Notes: a model not told the origin generated them from the letters alone. Counted from the first letter of the stretch, positions 23,846-61,016 are shown. The stretch: 64,000 nt of DNA from an uncultured Acidobacteriota bacterium (GCA_963700145.1 OY969474.1:5340928-5404927); one strand, 5' to 3'. Made by a program: numbers and translations.

Positions 23846-24862
23846 GCCGTCTCTCTCCTGGGAGGCCAGCGCAGTCGTGCTCTTTTCTGGATTGCAGAAA
23901 GTATAGCAGAGCTCAGGGCTGCTGCGGCTGCTTGAGTACCAACGGGCGTGAGGTGCCCCGGGAAAGTGCCTCGCGCCAGGCTAAGCCTGGGAAGGGAGGA
24001 AGGATGAAGTAAGAACCAGAAACCGTTCGTCGTGGACCCAGTAGGTCCGAATCCTAGCCGGCAAGGGTTGGCCACCCACGGAGAGCGCAGAGCGGTGCCG
24101 GGCGCCTCGTTGAAGGGAAGGCTTAAGGAGTGCCAGGAAGCGGTGCCAGGTGCCTGGAGAAAAGAAGAAGGGCGTCGGGGCCTACGAGCGCCTTCGTAGT
24201 CGATCTAGAAAGGTGAACGGACGACCGAAACCTCGATTGGGTCTTGCCAGCGTTCGAACTGCGTCGTTGACGACCCGCCACCGCCACCTCCCAGGCCCTT
24301 CATCAAGGTCTCCGGAAACACCTTGACCGTGGTCACCGCGACTTTCGAGTAGAAAGCAGTCAGTTGTTGGAGGGCTGACTATTGACTGTCACCCGCCGAC
24401 GAAGGGTAAGGCGGGCGGAAAACTTCCTGCGGGGAAAGGAGCAGCGCGGTCTCCGGCTCACAGCTTCTCGGCGGCTGAGCGGAACCCCAGGACGAACCAG
24501 GCATAGACGTCGTAAAGCGTCCGCCACATGATGTAGCTCGCCGCCAGAAACCATAGAAGACGGAAAATCTTCGGCGTTCTTGCAAATCCGTGCCAGGCTT
24601 GAGTTTGCGGGCGGGGTTTTGGCTCATTTCGGGTTCTAGAAGAGTTCTGTGACTCTGACCGCCCCGAGAGCGTTGGGCAACCTGAAGAAGCAGCGGCGTA
24701 CCCGCAGTGCGGTTCGGCAGGAAGACCGGCACTTCGTGAAGTGCCTGGGCAAGGACGAGCGATGAGAAAAGGAGGAGCGTCGGGGAGATGACGACATACT
24801 CCAGCGGAGGATCTACCTCATGAGAGGCCTCTCCGACCACCGAACGTCTTCCATTCAGCACG

Positions 24863-25012
24863 GTCGATGCCTCATCGACCTTGGTCGACGGGCCGTTTAC
24901 TTAAGTCGATCCTACATCGACTCGAGTCGATGAGCCGTTTACCTAAGTCGATCCTAAATCAACCGAGGTCAATGCGCCATGCACCCTCGAGTTGATGCCT
25001 CATCGATCGACC
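24863..25012. repeat. iteron-like array: seven GTCGAT-initiated units phased at 21 bp
   Basis: Unit starts at 24863, 24884, 24905, 24926, 24947 and 24968 (all exactly 21 bp apart) and at 24991. Palindromic units GTCGATnnnnCATCGAC alternate with GTCGAYGRGCCGTTTACYTAA units. Confidence 0.7.
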
Positions 25013-55188: not shown

Positions 55189-55631
55189 AGGGCAAAGCCA
55201 TCAAGATCCTGCTCGCCGAGGACGACCCCGACGACCGCCTCCTGCTGCAGGAAGCCCTCCAGGAGGGGCGTCTGGCCAACGAGCTGACCTGCGTCGAGGA
55301 CGGCGAGGAGCTGCTCGACTACCTCCACCAGCGCGGCAAGTGGGCCGGCGGGGCGCCGCGCCCGGGCCTCATCCTCCTCGACCTCAACATGCCGAAGCTC
55401 GACGGCCGCGAGGCGCTGCGCGCGATCAAGGCCGACCCGTCGCTGCGCCAGATCCCGGTCGTCGTGCTCACCACCTCGAAGGCCGAGGAGGACGTCCTGC
55501 GCAGCTACGACCTGGGCGCCAACTCCTTCATCACCAAGCCGGTGACCTTCCAGTCGATGGTCGACCTGATGCGCGTCCTCGGGCGCTACTGGCTGGAGAT
55601 CGTCGAGCTGCCGGCGGCGGACGCCGAATGA
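55185..55631 (+). CDS. stand-alone response regulator receiver
   Basis: 148 aa. [32 protein letters not shown] motifs. 4-nt overlaps on both sides. Confidence 0.85.
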
Positions 55632-57688
55632 ACGAAGCGCCCATCTCGGTGCTGCTGATCGACGACGACGAGGACGACTTCGTCCTGACGCGCGAGCTGC
55701 TCGCCGAGATCGGCAGCGCCCGCTTCGAGCTCGCCTGGGCGCCGCGCTACGAGGCGGGCCTGCAGGCGCTGCGCGACGGCGCGCACGACGTCTACCTGCT
55801 CGACTACCACCTGGGCGAGCGCAACGGCCTGGAGCTCCTGCGCGAGGCGGCGGCCTGCGGCTGCCGGGCGCCGATCATCATGCTCACCGGCCTGGGAGAC
55901 CGCGAGGTGGACCTCGAGGCGATGCGCCTGGGCGCCGCCGACTACCTGTTCAAGAAAGGGCTCGACGCGCCGCTCCTGGAGCGCGCCATCCGCTACTGCC
56001 TGGAGCGGGCGCGGACGCTGGAAGCGCTGCGCGAGAGCGAGGAGCGCTACTCGCTCGCCGCCTCGGGCGCCAACGACGGCCTCTGGGACTGGAACCTGCG
56101 CACCCACCGCATCTACTTCTCGCCGCGCTGGCGGCAGATGCTGGGGCTCGCCGAGTCGGAGGTGGCCGGGCTGCCCGACGACTGGTTCCGCCGCGTCCAT
56201 CCCGAGGACCTGCCGCGCCTGCGCCACGACCTCGCCGCTCATCTCGCCGGCGCCACCCCGCACTTCGAGAACGAGCACCGCCTGATGCACCGCGACGGCG
56301 ACTTCCGCTGGGTGCTGACGCGGGGCCTGGCGGTGCGCGGCGAGGACGGTGTCGCCTACCGCCTGTCCGGCTCGCAGACCGACACGACCGGCCGCAAGGT
56401 GCACGACGCGCTGACCGGGCTGCCCAACCGCGTGCTCTTCCTCGACCGCCTGGCCTCCGCTCTCTCCCGCGCCGGCCGCAACCGCCGCGGCGCTCTCCTC
56501 GCCGTCCTGGCGCTCGACCTCGACCGCTTCAAGCTGGTCAACGACAGCCTCGGGCACGGCCTGGGCGACCAGCTCCTGGCCGAGGTGGCGACCCGGCTCG
56601 CCGGCTGCCTGCGCCCCGAGGACACGGTGGCTCGCCTCGGCGGCGACGAGTTCGCCATCCTCCTCGAAGAGGTGCGAGACCCGCGCGAGGCGACGCGCGT
56701 CGCCGACCGCATCCACGCGGCGCTCGCTGCCCCCTGCCGGCTGGGCGGCCGCGAGCTCTTCACCTCGGCGAGCGTCGGCATCGCCCTGGCCGCCGGCGGC
56801 GTGCGGCCGGAGGCGCTGCTGACCGATGCCGACACGGCGATGAACCGTGCCAAGCGCTCGGGGCCGGCGCGCACCGAGGTCTTCGACGCGGCGATGCGCG
56901 CCCAGGCCCTGGACCGGCTGCAGCTCGAGTCCGACCTGCGGCTGGGGATCGAGCGCGGCGAGTTCCACCTGGAGTACCAGCCGATCGTCGCGCCGCACGG
57001 CGGCGAGGTGCTGGCCTTCGAGGCGCTGGCGCGCTGGCAGCGCCCCGGCCACGGCGTCGCCCTGCCGGAGGACTTCATCCCGGTGGCCGAGGAGACCGGG
57101 CTGATCGGCCCGCTCGGCGAGCACCTGCTGCGCCTGACCTGCGTCCAGATGAAGAGCTGGCTGGAGCAGCTCCCCGAAGACTCGCCGCTCGTCGTCTCGG
57201 TCAACCTCTCGGGCCGCCAGCTCACCGGCGACGACTTCCCCGAGCGGGTGGCGGCGGTGCTGGCGGAGACCGGCCTGCCGCCCGAGCGGCTCAAGATGGA
57301 GCTCACCGAGTCGGCGCTGGTCGAAAGCCCCGAGCGCTCGGCGGCGCTCCTGACCCGCCTCCGCGACCTCGGCGTCGGCCTCTGGCTCGACGACTTCGGC
57401 ACCGGCCACTCGTCCCTCTCCTACCTCCACCAGTTCCCCTTCGAGGCGCTCAAGATCGACGGCTCGTTCGTCGCCCGCCTGGAAGAGCCGGGCGGCCGCG
57501 CCGAGATCACCCGCACCATCGTCCTCCTCGCCCACAGCCTCGGGCTGACGACGATCGCCGAGGGCGTCGAGACCGCCGGCCAGTGCGCCCGCCTCCGCGA
57601 CCTCGGCTGCGACCGCCTGCAAGGCTTCCTGTTCGCCCCCGCCCTCCCGGCCGACACCGCCTGGGACCGGGTGGCGCCTCCCGGCTGA
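55628..57688 (+). CDS. response regulator with PAS, GGDEF and EAL domains (c-di-GMP turnover)
   Basis: The ATG at 55628 lies within track ORF 55340..57688. REC (VLLIDDDEDD...YLLDYHL); PAS (DGLWDWNL); GGDEF (RLGGDEFAIL); EAL (EALARW...ELTES...DDFGTG). Confidence 0.85.
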   Translation: MNEAPISVLLIDDDEDDFVLTRELLAEIGSARFELAWAPRYEAGLQALRDGAHDVYLLDYHLGERNGLELLREAAACGCRAPIIMLTGLGDREVDLEAMRLGAADYLFKKGLDAPLLERAIRYCLERARTLEALRESEERYSLAASGANDGLWDWNLRTHRIYFSPRWRQMLGLAESEVAGLPDDWFRRVHPEDLPRLRHDLAAHLAGATPHFENEHRLMHRDGDFRWVLTRGLAVRGEDGVAYRLSGSQTDTTGRKVHDALTGLPNRVLFLDRLASALSRAGRNRRGALLAVLALDLDRFKLVNDSLGHGLGDQLLAEVATRLAGCLRPEDTVARLGGDEFAILLEEVRDPREATRVADRIHAALAAPCRLGGRELFTSASVGIALAAGGVRPEALLTDADTAMNRAKRSGPARTEVFDAAMRAQALDRLQLESDLRLGIERGEFHLEYQPIVAPHGGEVLAFEALARWQRPGHGVALPEDFIPVAEETGLIGPLGEHLLRLTCVQMKSWLEQLPEDSPLVVSVNLSGRQLTGDDFPERVAAVLAETGLPPERLKMELTESALVESPERSAALLTRLRDLGVGLWLDDFGTGHSSLSYLHQFPFEALKIDGSFVARLEEPGGRAEITRTIVLLAHSLGLTTIAEGVETAGQCARLRDLGCDRLQGFLFAPALPADTAWDRVAPPG

Positions 57689-57700
57689 CCCGGAAAAGAC

Positions 57701-58414
57701 AACTTCGGACCGGGGAACGCTCCCCGGGGCGCCGGGAGGATTGTTTTCGGACCAGTTCGTACTACTTTCGGACAGAGAAGCACCAAGATCGGACCAAAAC
57801 AGCCGGTGCGTTGGGAGGGAAGCCGAGTTTACGGGGTCCGAAACTCGCCGGCGCCCGGCGGCAGAGCTATTTTCGGACCGAAAAGTACGATTTCAGGACC
57901 ACAGGGACGCCTGACACGGGTCAGAAGCCCCAAAATCGGACCGGCGACACGTCCCCAGCGCTCGGTACGAACGGTTCAGAGACCGAAGTGGAACAGAATC
58001 GGACCAAAGAGTTAGATTTCAGGACCGAGGAACGTTCCCGAAGGGCCGCTGACACCTCCGCACCAGCAGACGACAGCTCCTCAGGGTGCCAGATGGAAGA
58101 AAATCGGACCAAACCGTAAGATTTCAGGACCAAAACAGCCGCCCAAGGCCGCCGAGCGGTCCGATTTCGGACCAAACCACTAGGGGAGGCCCGCGGGGAG
58201 TGTTCCTTTCGGACCGGGGAAGAATATTTTCGGACCGCGGAGGCATCTTTTCGGACCGCGCAGCCTTCCCGAGGCCGCGGGGAGACATCCCGACGGGTGG
58301 GGGAGCGTAGCCTTCGGACAGCGGAAGGATCTTTTCGGACCGCGGAGCGTTCCCTTCGGACCGCGGAACCTTTCCGAGGCTGCAGGGAGGCTTCCTGACG
58401 GGTGGGGGAGCGGC
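57701..58414 (+). repeat. about 34-unit tandem array of diverged 21-bp repeats with conserved core TTTCGGACC (variants ATCGGACC, TTCAGGACC)
   Basis: GGAC cores start at 57707, 57749, 57770, 57791, 57875, 57896, 57938, 58001, 58022, 58106, 58127, 58169, 58211, 58232, 58253, 58316, 58337 and 58358. Every spacing is 21, 42, 63 or 84 bp. A 105-bp (5-unit) higher-order duplication links 58205-58309 to 58310-58414. Two inverted cores lie at 57835-57843 and 58158-58164. Confidence 0.85.
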
Positions 58415-58516
58415 CACTGCTAGCCCCGACGAGAGCCGCGAGCTGGCGCTCCTGGTCTCCGCGTCTGACACCTTCGCGCCAAGCGCTTGGCTGCCACGGC
58501 GGCGATCCGCAGCTCA
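58400..58516 (-). pseudogene. eroded RelE/ParE-type toxin N-terminus
   Basis: Directly after the antitoxin stop (ATATGA). One frame gives YELRIAAVAAKRLAR and another gives ...QERQLAALVGAS, which together resemble the start of ParE/RelE toxins. The reading is broken by frameshifts and runs into the repeat array. Confidence 0.3.
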
Positions 58517-58744
58517 TATCCGGCCATGACGCCGCAGGTCCTTGACGACCTGGTCGAAGCTCAGCAGCCGCTCTCCACGTCTCTGCTCGAAGGCCTCGAG
58601 ATCTGCCGCGTTTTCCCCAAGGGCCAGCCCAACAGCTTCGTTGACCAGCTCCGAGACGGAACAACCTGTCGTCGCCGCCTTGAGCCGCAGAGCACGATGG
58701 ATCTCGGGATCGAGGTAGACGGTTGCACGCTTCGTGGTTTTCAT
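58514..58744 (-). CDS. ribbon-helix-helix antitoxin (RelB/ParD-like)
   Basis: 76 aa. KRATVYLDPEIHRALRLKAATTGCSVSELVNEAV (RHH) plus a C-terminal toxin-binding-type tail. Confidence 0.7.
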   Translation of the reverse strand: MKTTKRATVYLDPEIHRALRLKAATTGCSVSELVNEAVGLALGENAADLEAFEQRRGERLLSFDQVVKDLRRHGRI

Positions 58745-59259
58745 AGGAGCCCAGGCTAGTGCCCCGGCGCTAGGACGTCAAAGACGACAGTCCGTTTGCG
58801 CGGCGCGCTCGCGGGCCCTCCGGGGCCGCCCTCCTTCAGAGGCAGGGGACGCCATGAAAGGACCACCGCAGGCGTAAGGCAGCCAGAGCCCGCGGCGCCC
58901 ACCCCAGCGCTGTGTAGCTTAGGCCGAGCGCCATCCAGGAGTTTTCCTGCGCGAGCTGCCCCGGCCGAAGCCTCGCGCGCAACGCGTTGGGGATCGCGGC
59001 GCTACCCGCTCTCGAGGCCCGCTTCGCCCGACCCCGCAGGCGACTCCATTCATCTGGCACCTAGCCACTGGGCCAAAGATCGATTAGCGTCACTCTCATC
59101 GCCGAGCGCTGATGGCTTGAGCAGCTGAGCAGCTGCCGCTCGGGCCGGCCCTGCGCGCGGGAAACGCAATGAAGGACCCGCTCCGCATTTCACAACGAGC
59201 GACAGACGGCCAAGCCGTATAACAGTGGTCATACTGAGGAGACATGTAAGGACACGCCC

Positions 59260-60315
59260 ATGAAGAAGCCTAGGCGACCAGAGTACACCCCGTTGGACTT
59301 CGCTCAATGGAAGGCGGCGAACTCTCTTTCTCTCTCTCCCAAGTTCCAGCGGCGGGGAGTCTGGAAATCGGCGGCCCGCTCCTTTTTTGTGGACAGCTTA
59401 CTGCGAGGTATGCCAGTTCCTCCAATCTACTTGCGCGAGATGCAGTCTCCGCAGCGCGATCGCGTAATTCGCGAAGTGATAGATGGCCAGCAGCGGATCG
59501 CTGCTGTCCTCGACTTTATGGACGGCAAGTACCGCCTCTCTAGGAGTCTCAAGGGGCCGTGGGCTGGCAAAGCCTTTGGCGGATTGACGCCGGAGGAGCA
59601 GGACAACGTGACGAACTACGCCTTCTCTGTCGAGATGTTTCATGGGATCTCTGATCTTGAGGTCCTCGAGATGTTCTCTCGACTGAATACATATAGTGTG
59701 GCGCTAAACAAGCAAGAACTCCGTCACGGGAGGTTTTTTGGTCGATTCAAGCAGTCTGTCTACTCCCTTGCTTACGAGCATTTGGAATTCTGGCGGCGCC
59801 ACCGAATATTCACAGAGCAGAATATCGCGCGCATGCTCGAAGCTGAATTTGTTAGCGAGGTTCTGATTGCTTTTCTCGATGGAATGCAAGACAAGAAGAA
59901 GTCCATTGAGTCGTTCTATGACAAGTTTGACGACGAGTTTGCTGAGCAGTCGCGTCTGGAGAAGCATTTCCGTGAAGCCGTAGACGAAATAACGGAGTCG
60001 CTTGGCGACGCCCTTGTGGATACCATCTTTCGTCGGCCTCCCATCTTGTATTCGCTCGTTTGCGTTCTCCAACACCGCCGACACGGCTTACCGGGCGTGT
60101 CTGTCGCAACCACGAAAAGGCCTCTCTCTCAAGACGAACGCTTGTCCCTACGAGAGGCCGTTGAGTCTCTCTCGGCGAGGGTTGATTCCGCTCGCGCGGG
60201 TGAAGTCGTCCCGAATCAATACGTCGCCTTCGTCAAGGCCTGCCTACAGCAGACAGACAATATTAGGCCGCGCGAGACTAGGTTCAAGGTTCTCTATCGC
60301 ACAGCATTCCGGTAG
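59260..60315 (+). CDS. DUF262 (ParB-like/GmrSD N-terminal) domain protein, no DUF1524/HNH domain
   Basis: 351 aa. FQRRGVWKSAARSFFVDSLLRGMPVPPIYL and VIDGQQRIAAVLDF (DGQQR motif). The C-terminal half is helical with no His-Me/HNH signature visible. Low GC. Confidence 0.85.
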   Translation: MKKPRRPEYTPLDFAQWKAANSLSLSPKFQRRGVWKSAARSFFVDSLLRGMPVPPIYLREMQSPQRDRVIREVIDGQQRIAAVLDFMDGKYRLSRSLKGPWAGKAFGGLTPEEQDNVTNYAFSVEMFHGISDLEVLEMFSRLNTYSVALNKQELRHGRFFGRFKQSVYSLAYEHLEFWRRHRIFTEQNIARMLEAEFVSEVLIAFLDGMQDKKKSIESFYDKFDDEFAEQSRLEKHFREAVDEITESLGDALVDTIFRRPPILYSLVCVLQHRRHGLPGVSVATTKRPLSQDERLSLREAVESLSARVDSARAGEVVPNQYVAFVKACLQQTDNIRPRETRFKVLYRTAFR

Positions 60316-60318
60316 ACC

Positions 60319-60963
60319 ATGCCGAGGCAGATGCCCCGCCTCGAGGCGGAGTTTCATCGCCATGCGGCAGAAGCTATGAAGCTTGCCGAAATTGGTGAGC
60401 TCTCACGAGCTGAGGCAATCGCTGGCTCCCAGACGCGCAAGAATTTCCATCACAGTCGCGTGGAGTTACTGTATGAGCTAGCATTTTTGCGGGTTTTCGT
60501 GGCGTGGGAAGCGTTTCTTGAGCAGACCTTCATCCGATATCTCTGCGGCTATAGATCAAGGAGAGGCGTGGCTGTCCTTTTGGCTGGAGCATCGTTCTCG
60601 CCGACGCTTGCACACGCCACAGCCGTTGTTCTGGCGGGAAGAGACTACGTATTGTGGCATGACCCGTTAAAGGTGATTGGAAGATCGCAGCGGTCGTTCA
60701 CTGCCTGTCCTATCGAAACGGTCCTTCTCTCAAACACTGCCCGTCTTCAGGCATGTGCCGCTGTACGCCACCGCATCGCACACTCACAGAGCGACGCTCG
60801 GCGGAAGTTCGACAACGCGACCATGGCCATAGCAGGGAAGCGCTACAGAGGTGCCCGAGCGGGCGCGTTTCTTCGCGACTGGGACATAGGGGTGACGCCT
60901 CATGCCCGATGGCTTGAGCAATTGGGGCGTGAGTTGCAGAGTCTTGCATCTCAGATAGCATGA
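60319..60963 (+). CDS. HEPN-like protein (Rx4H: RHRIAH), MAE_28990/MAE_18760-like by resemblance
   Basis: 214 aa. The ATG is 3 nt after the DUF262 stop. Helical N-part LLYELAFLRVFVAWEAFLEQTF and C-terminal AAVRHRIAHSQSD (Rx4-6H). The family assignment comes from memory of the motif pattern, not from a search. Confidence 0.5.
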   Translation: MPRQMPRLEAEFHRHAAEAMKLAEIGELSRAEAIAGSQTRKNFHHSRVELLYELAFLRVFVAWEAFLEQTFIRYLCGYRSRRGVAVLLAGASFSPTLAHATAVVLAGRDYVLWHDPLKVIGRSQRSFTACPIETVLLSNTARLQACAAVRHRIAHSQSDARRKFDNATMAIAGKRYRGARAGAFLRDWDIGVTPHARWLEQLGRELQSLASQIA

Positions 60964-60984
60964 ACAAGTTAAGCAAAAAGGCAT

Positions 60985-61016
60985 AACCCGCCCGCCATAG
61001 CGAAGGCGGACGGGTT
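60985..61016 (-). terminator. hairpin terminator downstream of the 61063..61779 gene and at the island edge
   Basis: AACCCGCCCGCC-atagcgaa-GGCGGACGGGTT with one mismatch. On the minus strand it is followed by atgccTTTTTgctt. Confidence 0.45.

Follow-up and report, generated by a model that had tools for sequence, protein, structure and literature searches.

A 21-bp repeat array with a constrained core motif at the end of a c-di-GMP operon in an uncultured acidobacterium

A tandem array next to a c-di-GMP regulator gene

We analysed a stretch of 64,000 nucleotides from an uncultured Acidobacteriota bacterium (GCA_963700145.1, OY969474.1:5340928-5404927), referred to below as the window, in which a tract of short tandem repeats, the array, lies directly behind a gene for a c-di-GMP regulator with GGDEF and EAL domains (the EAL gene; Table 1). 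The array is real, non-coding, common to six strains and unexplained by any described element. A register print-out from 57701 resolves its 714 bp into 34 tandem units of exactly 21 bp. It begins 12-13 bp beyond the stop codon of the upstream open reading frame (ORF; stop at 57686-57688), which agrees with the 13 bp given in an earlier first-pass annotation of the window. Homologues of the upstream protein are labelled Thermoanaerobaculia, of the phylum Acidobacteriota, and its 90% cluster has nine members.

The 18 GGAC starts on which the first-pass annotation had built its claim of 34 units with 18 cores in one phase all fall in phase 0 (modulo 21) of the register, the sole off-phase GGAC within the array being that at 57905; for the window, the claim holds. 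The hexamer TCGGAC occurs 15 times within the array against 14 times in the remaining 63 kb of the window. Two copies spaced as TCGGAC-N15-TCGGAC are found six times where 0.04 matches are expected, and the three-core version with the same 21-bp spacing three times where 0.00 are expected; TTCGGACC is matched 12 times in the window, where 2.9 matches would be expected, and 10 of the 12 fall in the array. The tandem repeat finder TRF called 21-bp arrays only at 58207-58260 and 58311-58369, in the young right end, and missed the rest of the array because the older units are too diverged. It also called a 105-bp period repeated 2.0 times at 83% identity (58208-58412), corresponding to the higher-order blocks at 58205 and 58310 and upholding the duplicated last 105-bp block of the first-pass annotation. 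Three 42-bp pairs of a type-1 and a type-2 core start at 57869, 57995 and 58100, and all three are invariant blocks across the six-strain alignment. Two cores are inverted, at 57835 and 58158. The second belongs to a perfect inverted pair, GGTCCGATTTCGGACC, as had been proposed; it is retained in all five strains whose sequence reaches it, with a single C>T change that would keep a G-U pair on the plus strand.

The invariant part of the unit reads (T/A)C-R-GACC. A short constrained core had thus been recognized correctly, whereas the truly invariant stretch is shorter than the TTTCGGACC first assigned to it. Core variants in the window are TCGGACC, CAGGACC and TCGGACA, and the other strains add CGAGACC, TCAGACC, CGGGACC and AGAGACC. 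The consensus of all 34 units comprises a pyrimidine- and T-rich part (phases 0-5), GGACC and a purine run, GRRRAR (phases 11-16). This consensus is longer than the core, so the 'degenerate' units are homologous units that have lost it. Within the window the core is kept in 18 of the 34 units, and spacer identity among core units is 0.31-0.41, compared with 0.27 for random sequence. On the 5' side of the core the sequence is W-rich (about 73-83%, the array as a whole having 38%), and one and the same core can have either an A-tract or a T-tract there, depending on the unit; AA/TT periodicity peaks at 10.5 bp. The array has a G+C content of 0.60-0.65 against 0.72-0.78 for the upstream gene, and its plus strand is purine- and A-rich, with an AT skew of up to +0.42. 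Outside the array, neither the 64-kb window nor some 50 kb from related loci contains the motif above chance level. Comparison by eye with consensus sequences gave no convincing match to DnaA, IHF or ARG boxes, ECF promoters or RsrII/AvaII sites; GGACC fits GGWCC and eight cores contain CGGACCG, which we regard as incidental.

The array was read in five further strains: L122 (an ENA farmland scaffold), L126 (a Logan contig), L169 (GCA_035536455.1), L170 (a 1.43-Mb JGI contig) and L171 (a 0.66-Mb ENA contig). With the window they make up the six-strain alignment, A3. In all five the array directly follows the EAL gene and aligns unit for unit with that of the window. By its left half, the array separates the window, L126 and L170 (clade A) from L122, L169 and L171 (clade B). 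Neither an array nor stray cores occur in the related loci L123, L124, L127 and L128, whose EAL proteins are 75-77% identical. L127 represents an empty site: 12 bp separate its EAL gene from a peptidase S9 gene of the same orientation. In L169 the array sits between the counterparts of these two genes. The empty site and the position in L169 together indicate an origin of the array within an operon or at its end, in one species-level lineage.

Table 1 Features of the array and its immediate surroundings in the window
Feature	Position	Strand	Basis
Response regulator-PAS-GGDEF-EAL gene, last of a TonB-receptor / CHASE8 kinase / response-regulator operon	55628-57688	+	Pfam, homologues, synteny
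Array, 34 units of 21 bp, 18 with intact core; consensus ~yTTTCGGACCGrGGAGnnnT	57701-58414	+	Register, per-phase composition, five further strains
G+C-rich hairpin (57723-57736) followed by TTGTTTT, terminator-like, in unit 2	57722-57749	+	Clade A strains only
First 42-bp pair: type-1 core (WWWTCGGACC) and, 21 bp on, type-2 core (GATTTCAGGACC)	57869-57900	+	Six-strain alignment
198-aa ORF, judged fortuitous	57921-58517	-	Heptads; annotated as a gene in a public assembly
Four successive 105-bp five-unit higher-order blocks, starting at 57995, 58100, 58205 and 58310	57995-58414	+	TRF, register, lag-105 autocorrelation
Perfect inverted core pair	58158-58173		Sequence, six-strain alignment
99-bp spacer between array and ribbon-helix-helix gene, earlier 'eroded toxin'	58415-58513		Absent in L126; first ~20 bp shared with L170
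76-aa ribbon-helix-helix antitoxin-like gene, first gene of a strain-specific insertion, outside the array	58514-58744	-	Pfam, NCBIfam

Divergence, turnover and flanks in six strains

In all 15 strain pairs of the alignment, the core (phases 5-10 of the 18 core units) diverges by 0-7%, whereas all other array positions diverge by 10-43%, reaching 40-43% between the clades in the left half. The cores are thus under constraint, as the first-pass annotation had claimed from the window, and that they are held while the spacers approach saturation speaks for selection acting on the DNA or the RNA. Third codon positions in the 3'-terminal 1.8 kb of the EAL gene diverge by 7-11% in a star-like manner, but since they are 96.7% G+C (GC3 = 0.967), this synonymous divergence badly underestimates the neutral rate of the genome. 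The tree of the left half of the array conflicts with that of the flanking gene; the conflict and the fast spacer rate point to relaxed G+C constraint plus recombination.

The array turns over by whole units. Comparison of array length between strains, which had been suggested as a check, revealed two insertions or deletions (indels) of exactly 21 bp in L122, and truncations or deletions of the right end in L126 and L170. There is one clear case of unit-to-unit conversion: the L122 spacer GGACCGGGGAAGAAG at window position 58001 matches that of window unit 58205. The same comparison uncovered eight 1-bp indels (four in L126, two in L170, one each in L169 and L171). Most of them lie in homopolymer runs, and most fall within, or adjoin, units lacking a core. 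Perfect phase thus characterizes the window and L122 and not the element as such, and the notion that helical phase was itself selected is weakened, with such indels in four of the six strains. With a single exception in the six strains, adjacent cores are spaced by exactly 21 bp.

At the left boundary, the EAL gene has lost its stop codon to a 32-bp deletion in L122 (3585-3646), L169 (10042-10103) and L171 (10039-10100; window equivalent 57666-57697). The EAL proteins of these strains gain 13-14 residues from the first array units and end at a TAG in unit 3, with 699-700 instead of 686 residues.

At the right boundary, similarity of the window to L122 and L169 stops exactly at 58414, and what follows varies by strain. 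The ribbon-helix-helix (RHH) gene and an island with a DUF262 gene adjoin the array in two of the six strains, the window and L126; the link to a DUF262/HEPN island drawn by the first-pass annotation is not borne out. Nor could an 'eroded toxin' gene at the array end be substantiated, the segment in question (58415-58513) being deleted in L126 and a gene remnant not demonstrable; in L126, a 113-bp deletion fuses the array directly to the RHH stop codon. On this side, L170 carries an nSTAND-WD40 gene and a TIR/SIR2 gene, L171 has an IS21 element inserted inside the array, and L169 has a remnant resembling an ECF sigma factor gene, followed by peptidase S9. We observe a turnover hotspot right of the array, with at least four different contents in six close strains (window 58415-61000; L169 10759-11184; L170 10660-16182; L171 10476-12917). 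The same site in the more distant relatives L123 (12099-12808) and L124 (11470-14011) holds PIN/PhdYeFM or DUF4258/HTH-M78 modules, and is empty in L127. Further neighbours in the window are the DUF262 (GmrSD_N) protein (59260-60963), which matches PADLOC NsnA with an E value of 1e-33, a 214-aa protein without family and Lcl_C. The 214-aa protein, encoded 4 bp downstream of DUF262, has no Pfam, NCBIfam or PADLOC match, and its 'HEPN' label is unconfirmed.

Pattern searches reached beyond the locus. A scan of a genome collection for three TCGGAC hexamers at 21-bp spacing had unrelated 21-bp and 7-bp coding repeats among the matches listed. Three of its at least 120 matches are intergenic-looking 21-bp CTCGGAC arrays in other Thermoanaerobaculia metagenome-assembled genomes: L065 (1153-1425, near an RHH antitoxin), L079 (4763-5056, near an MNT/HEPN pair) and L071 (2240-2686, near an AAA ATPase and IS110). 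We do not count them as relatives, because only the searched hexamer and the period are in common. A metagenome scan for the 42-bp signature, TCGGACC-N10-GATTTCAGGACC, had one chance match, in a coding region, among the matches listed. Viral contigs gave just collagen-like and other coding repeats; the literature, searched for the motif, yielded nothing but primers and unrelated sequences. The element may be rarer than a single species-level clade suggests, or simply unsampled. Elsewhere in the window, a GTCGA/TCGAC-rich 42-bp unit is repeated 2.5 times with 83% matches (24863-24967) in a low-GC intergenic region (23846-24978), ending 12 bp before an ATG-initiated ORF at 24979; it has an operator- or iteron-like look and a period that is a multiple of 21.

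Competing explanations of the array

That the array is non-coding, as the first-pass annotation had held, follows from several observations. Stop codons occur in all six frames, two to five per frame in the window and one to six in the orthologous array of L122. The 136 substitutions between window and L122 are split 44/48/44 across the three codon positions, and per-phase conservation is without a 3-nt pattern, the best-conserved phase, 7, being a would-be third position. The translated alternative holds that the array is part of a heptad-repeat protein, encoded either by the minus-strand 198-aa ORF, the supposed toxin, or by a plus-strand frame. It can point to a unit length of seven codons, a minus frame that reads xSAVRKx with just three stops in 820 bp, an ATG that overlaps the RHH stop as ATGA, and a gene caller that accepted the ORF. 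Besides the stops and the even spread of substitutions, it faces 1-bp indels in four strains, an ORF whose first 103 nt are shared with none of L122, L169 and L126, an RHH gene missing from four strains, and a protein with no Pfam match and no homologue except itself among 5.8 billion proteins. When the other five frames were joined into a composite query against the same proteins, the sole match was an ORF that had been called at this locus in a different strain. The heptad-protein reading is effectively refuted, and we give it next to no credence; the 198-aa ORF as a toxin is rejected on the stops in every frame, the missing codon periodicity, the lack of homologues and its unconserved 5' end. 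Spurious gene calls cover the array at more than one locus: an ORF of 198 or 247 aa in the window, and a 309-aa ORF in L126 (618-1547) that also runs antisense through the RHH gene. Short-read contigs, for their part, end at the borders of repeats.

No signal of a structured RNA was found. Rfam has no match at its gathering threshold, just chance-level matches at E<=10. Folding of the whole array gives z-scores of -1.0 (plus strand) and -2.2 (minus strand), and the segments around the 18 cores fold with -3.23 kcal/mol against -3.21 +/- 0.43 kcal/mol for shuffled sequences. The RNAalifold covariation term is unfavourable (+6.07), with compensatory changes in 2 of 103 pairs; seven local stems drawn by hand show no two-sided change, and their one-sided changes all lead to G-U, which pairs only on the plus strand. 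All 18 window cores contain GGA, which is unpaired in the local minimum-energy fold of just six of the 18 segments; the predicted unpaired probability of the core GGA is 0.46 against 0.37 overall. A register of pyrimidine arm, core and purine arm pairs better than others on the plus strand (105 of 204, against 52-86 in other registers). One hairpin per unit with GGA in its loop was rejected as a model, since folding equals that of shuffled sequences and covariation is absent. No sigma-70-like promoter was found, and terminator-like hairpins occur at chance level, with none at the downstream end of the array. The gene csrA was not found in the DNA of the window and related loci that was examined.

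Two explanations can be set aside with little hesitation. A collapsed or expanded repeat in the assembly would fit the short-read contigs that break inside the array, L121 exactly at 58310 and a contig of ERR12035939 within it. Six independent assemblies nonetheless align along its length, each with substitutions of its own, on contigs that include ones of 1.43, 0.66 and 5.46 Mb, and L121 is 100% identical across 58310-59296; an artefact is barely credible. Scarcely more plausible is a type III toxin-antitoxin RNA (ToxI-like), or another processed repeat-RNA of the adjacent defence island, as might be suspected from tandem direct repeats beside toxin-antitoxin and defence genes in the window and from the resemblance of the DUF262 protein to NsnA. 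Behind the array, neither strand carries a gene for an endoribonuclease toxin; its 21-nt unit is well below the 34-45 nt of ToxI, CptI and TenpI repeats; and it is anchored to the EAL gene, while the defence neighbours differ per strain or, in L169, are absent.

Two others carry more weight. The array could be a function-less, lineage-specific minisatellite at a permissive intergenic site, shaped by slippage, unequal crossing-over, gene conversion and possibly an enzyme that recognizes the core. Its confinement to one species-level clade and absence from relatives at about 75% identity would fit this, as would the satellite anatomy, with a young end of homogeneous units (58205-58414) and older ones that have degenerated, the turnover by two 21-bp indels and a 105-bp duplication, the sign of conversion in L122, the conflict between left-half and gene trees, and truncation or interruption without obvious cost (IS21 in L171, right-end deletions in L126 and L170). 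Neutral decay or conversion should not, however, spare six to seven bases per unit amid spacers diverging by up to 40-43%, and seven to nine core positions of the left half are retained in both deeply split clades; we consider a minisatellite unlikely, if far from negligible. A plus-strand RNA forming the 3' or intercistronic tail of the c-di-GMP operon, whose approximately 18 single-stranded (U/A)C-R-GACC sites would bind or titrate an RNA-binding protein in the manner of CsrB/RsmZ or CrcZ, or set mRNA stability or polarity, is possible, if rather doubtful. The array starts at the end of the upstream ORF, or inside it in clade B, leaving no room for a promoter; in L169 it separates two same-strand genes that lie 12 bp apart in the empty site of L127. 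All cores but two are on the sense, purine-rich strand, most of them with GGA in a 7-nt conserved motif reminiscent of the CAGGAUG of CsrB repeats. The higher unpaired probability of the core GGA, the tolerance of 1-bp indels and of core loss in about half of the units, and the one-sided stem changes to G-U also agree with an RNA. Against it stand the missing Rfam family, promoter-like site and downstream terminator-like site, as well as the absence of hairpin excess and covariation. In orthologous cores, moreover, GGA changes to AGA (CGAGACC, TCAGACC, AGAGACC), which should abolish CsrA binding. Interchangeable A- and T-tracts beside the same core would be odd for a single-strand reader, and a low-abundance mRNA of a signalling operon would make a poor sponge. 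The sponge of the CsrB/RsmZ type that had been offered as a second possibility is weakened, as far as CsrA in particular is concerned, by the GGA-to-AGA changes, by GGA-presenting hairpins no commoner than in shuffled sequences and by the lack of detectable conserved structure. Some Acidobacteria do encode CsrA, but they may control it via FliW rather than by sponges of small RNA (sRNA; PMC4682653).

A putative protein-binding tract and its known counterparts

We tentatively favour the reading of the array as phased binding sites on duplex DNA for a putative protein, while giving it less than an even chance. Downstream of the GGDEF-EAL gene, in a single species-level lineage of Thermoanaerobaculia, the element arose through duplications, first of 21 bp and later of 105 bp, and it has been retained since. 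Its working parts would be about 18 copies of a motif, an A- or T-tract of 3-5 nt followed by (T/A)C-R-GACC, all on one strand and, where adjacent, exactly 21 bp or two helical turns apart. A sequence-specific protein encoded elsewhere may bind them head-to-tail along one face of the helix, coating the 0.7-kb tract, and the conserved inverted pair at 58158-58173 would provide a dimer-type site. The coated tract may serve as a titration sink, or as a transcriptional roadblock or boundary that separates the operon from the hypervariable region to its right. We infer that the constraint reflects protein binding, that the ligand reads DNA and not RNA, and that binding is cooperative; from the sequence alone, DNA-level and RNA-level binding cannot be told apart. 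Favouring DNA over RNA are the 21-bp spacing of adjacent cores, the two exact 21-bp indels, the AA/TT periodicity of 10.5 bp, the conserved inverted pair and the absence of an RNA-structure signal. The exchange of A-tract for T-tract flanks points the same way, the two being equivalent for minor-groove shape, not for a reader of single strands.

Several observations weigh against binding to duplex DNA. No candidate binding protein is encoded nearby, and the regulators of the operon have no DNA-binding output domain in Pfam. The RHH gene adjoins the array in just two of six strains, and its own promoter region is without the motif; the RHH protein is hence unsupported as the ligand. With 6-7 bp per 21 bp, the core would make a short DNA-binding site. 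The eight 1-bp indels break the phase in four strains, and helical phasing may be a mere legacy of tandem duplication. The upstream stop inside unit 3 in clade B and the same-strand next gene in L169 imply at least partial plus-strand transcription, which fits an RNA-level role equally well. The genome and metagenome search for phased arrays that the first-pass annotation had called for revealed no similar array among the loci listed by the two pattern scans, and neither PLSDB (72,556 plasmids, blastn) nor phage records gave a match.

We regard it as improbable that the coated tract, maintained by the host and carrying a protein that polymerises on about 18 phased sites, acts specifically as a boundary or roadblock between the signalling operon and a hotspot whose defence cargo differs in almost every strain or, as a variant, that a CsrB-like sponge occupies the tail of the c-di-GMP operon. 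If true, the coated tract would represent a type of insulator or landing pad new to bacteria, and the variant would give Acidobacteria their first multi-site protein sponge of the CsrB kind.

In its working the array most resembles iteron arrays, centromere arrays and CsrB-type sponges, yet it departs from each in features that define it. That no described element carries the motif, as had been stated, agrees with the negative results from Rfam, plasmids, phages and the literature. With the iterons of F, P1 incA, R6K and pPS10, and with datA, the array has in common direct repeats of about 20 bp at every two helical turns, its 21 bp falling within the 17-22 bp of iteron arrays, conserved and freer repeat parts and a G+C content below that of its surroundings; as in Rep operators, part of the repeat also occurs inverted. 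In contrast to iterons, it lacks an adjacent rep gene in the window and the other strains, no DnaA boxes or unwinding element were seen, its 34 units exceed the usual 3-13, and it is chromosomal, anchored to a housekeeping operon in six strains and without similarity to the 72,556 plasmids. RHH-bound centromeres (parC of R1 and pB171, the 20-bp repeats of pSK41, the omega heptads) likewise consist of short direct repeats of fixed period, and in the window and L126 an RHH gene lies beside the array. There is, however, no ParA, ParM or TubZ gene among the flanking ORFs of the window or the five other strains, the RHH gene is missing at the array in four of six strains, its promoter region contains no motif, and known centromere repeats are contiguous, whereas 14 free bases separate the array cores. 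The centromere or iteron proposed by the first-pass annotation is therefore not borne out: no par or rep gene is nearby, and an RHH gene adjoins in only two strains.

CsrB, RsmZ and CrcZ resemble the array in their many motifs of 6-7 nt, mostly with GGA, in A/U-rich surroundings on one transcribed strand, and the array spacing lies within the bridging range of a CsrA dimer. Unlike them, the array gave no Rfam match and no promoter or terminator of its own was found, its motifs show no predicted preference for hairpin loops, its orthologous sites undergo GGA-to-AGA change, and it is 700 nt long, strictly periodic and placed in the tail of an operon mRNA, not in a separate sRNA gene. Mycobacterial MIRUs and enterobacterial REP/BIME elements also form tandem arrays between genes or at the end of operons and vary in copy number by whole units; MIRUs measure 46-101 bp and keep small ORFs in frame, against a unit of 21 bp here, and REPs are palindromes scattered over hundreds of loci, whereas the array unit is non-palindromic and its motif at chance level elsewhere in the window. 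CRISPR arrays have repeats of 23-47 bp and unique spacers of similar length, usually with cas genes, unlike a total period of 21 bp with 'spacers' of 10-14 bp that are orthologous between strains; no cas genes are found near the array.

Long arrays in which a motif of six to seven bases stays constant while the remainder decays are rare on bacterial chromosomes, and the known examples (iterons, centromeres, CsrB-type sponges) are each a regulatory machine around one protein. The element described here comes from a phylum of which little is known and is placed where a c-di-GMP operon ends and a hypervariable defence hotspot begins; its value is limited for now by its confinement to one species-level clade. 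Since its motif, its uncultured soil Thermoanaerobaculia host and its setting match none of the known examples, its ligand would reveal a new DNA-organising protein or RNA-binding regulator.

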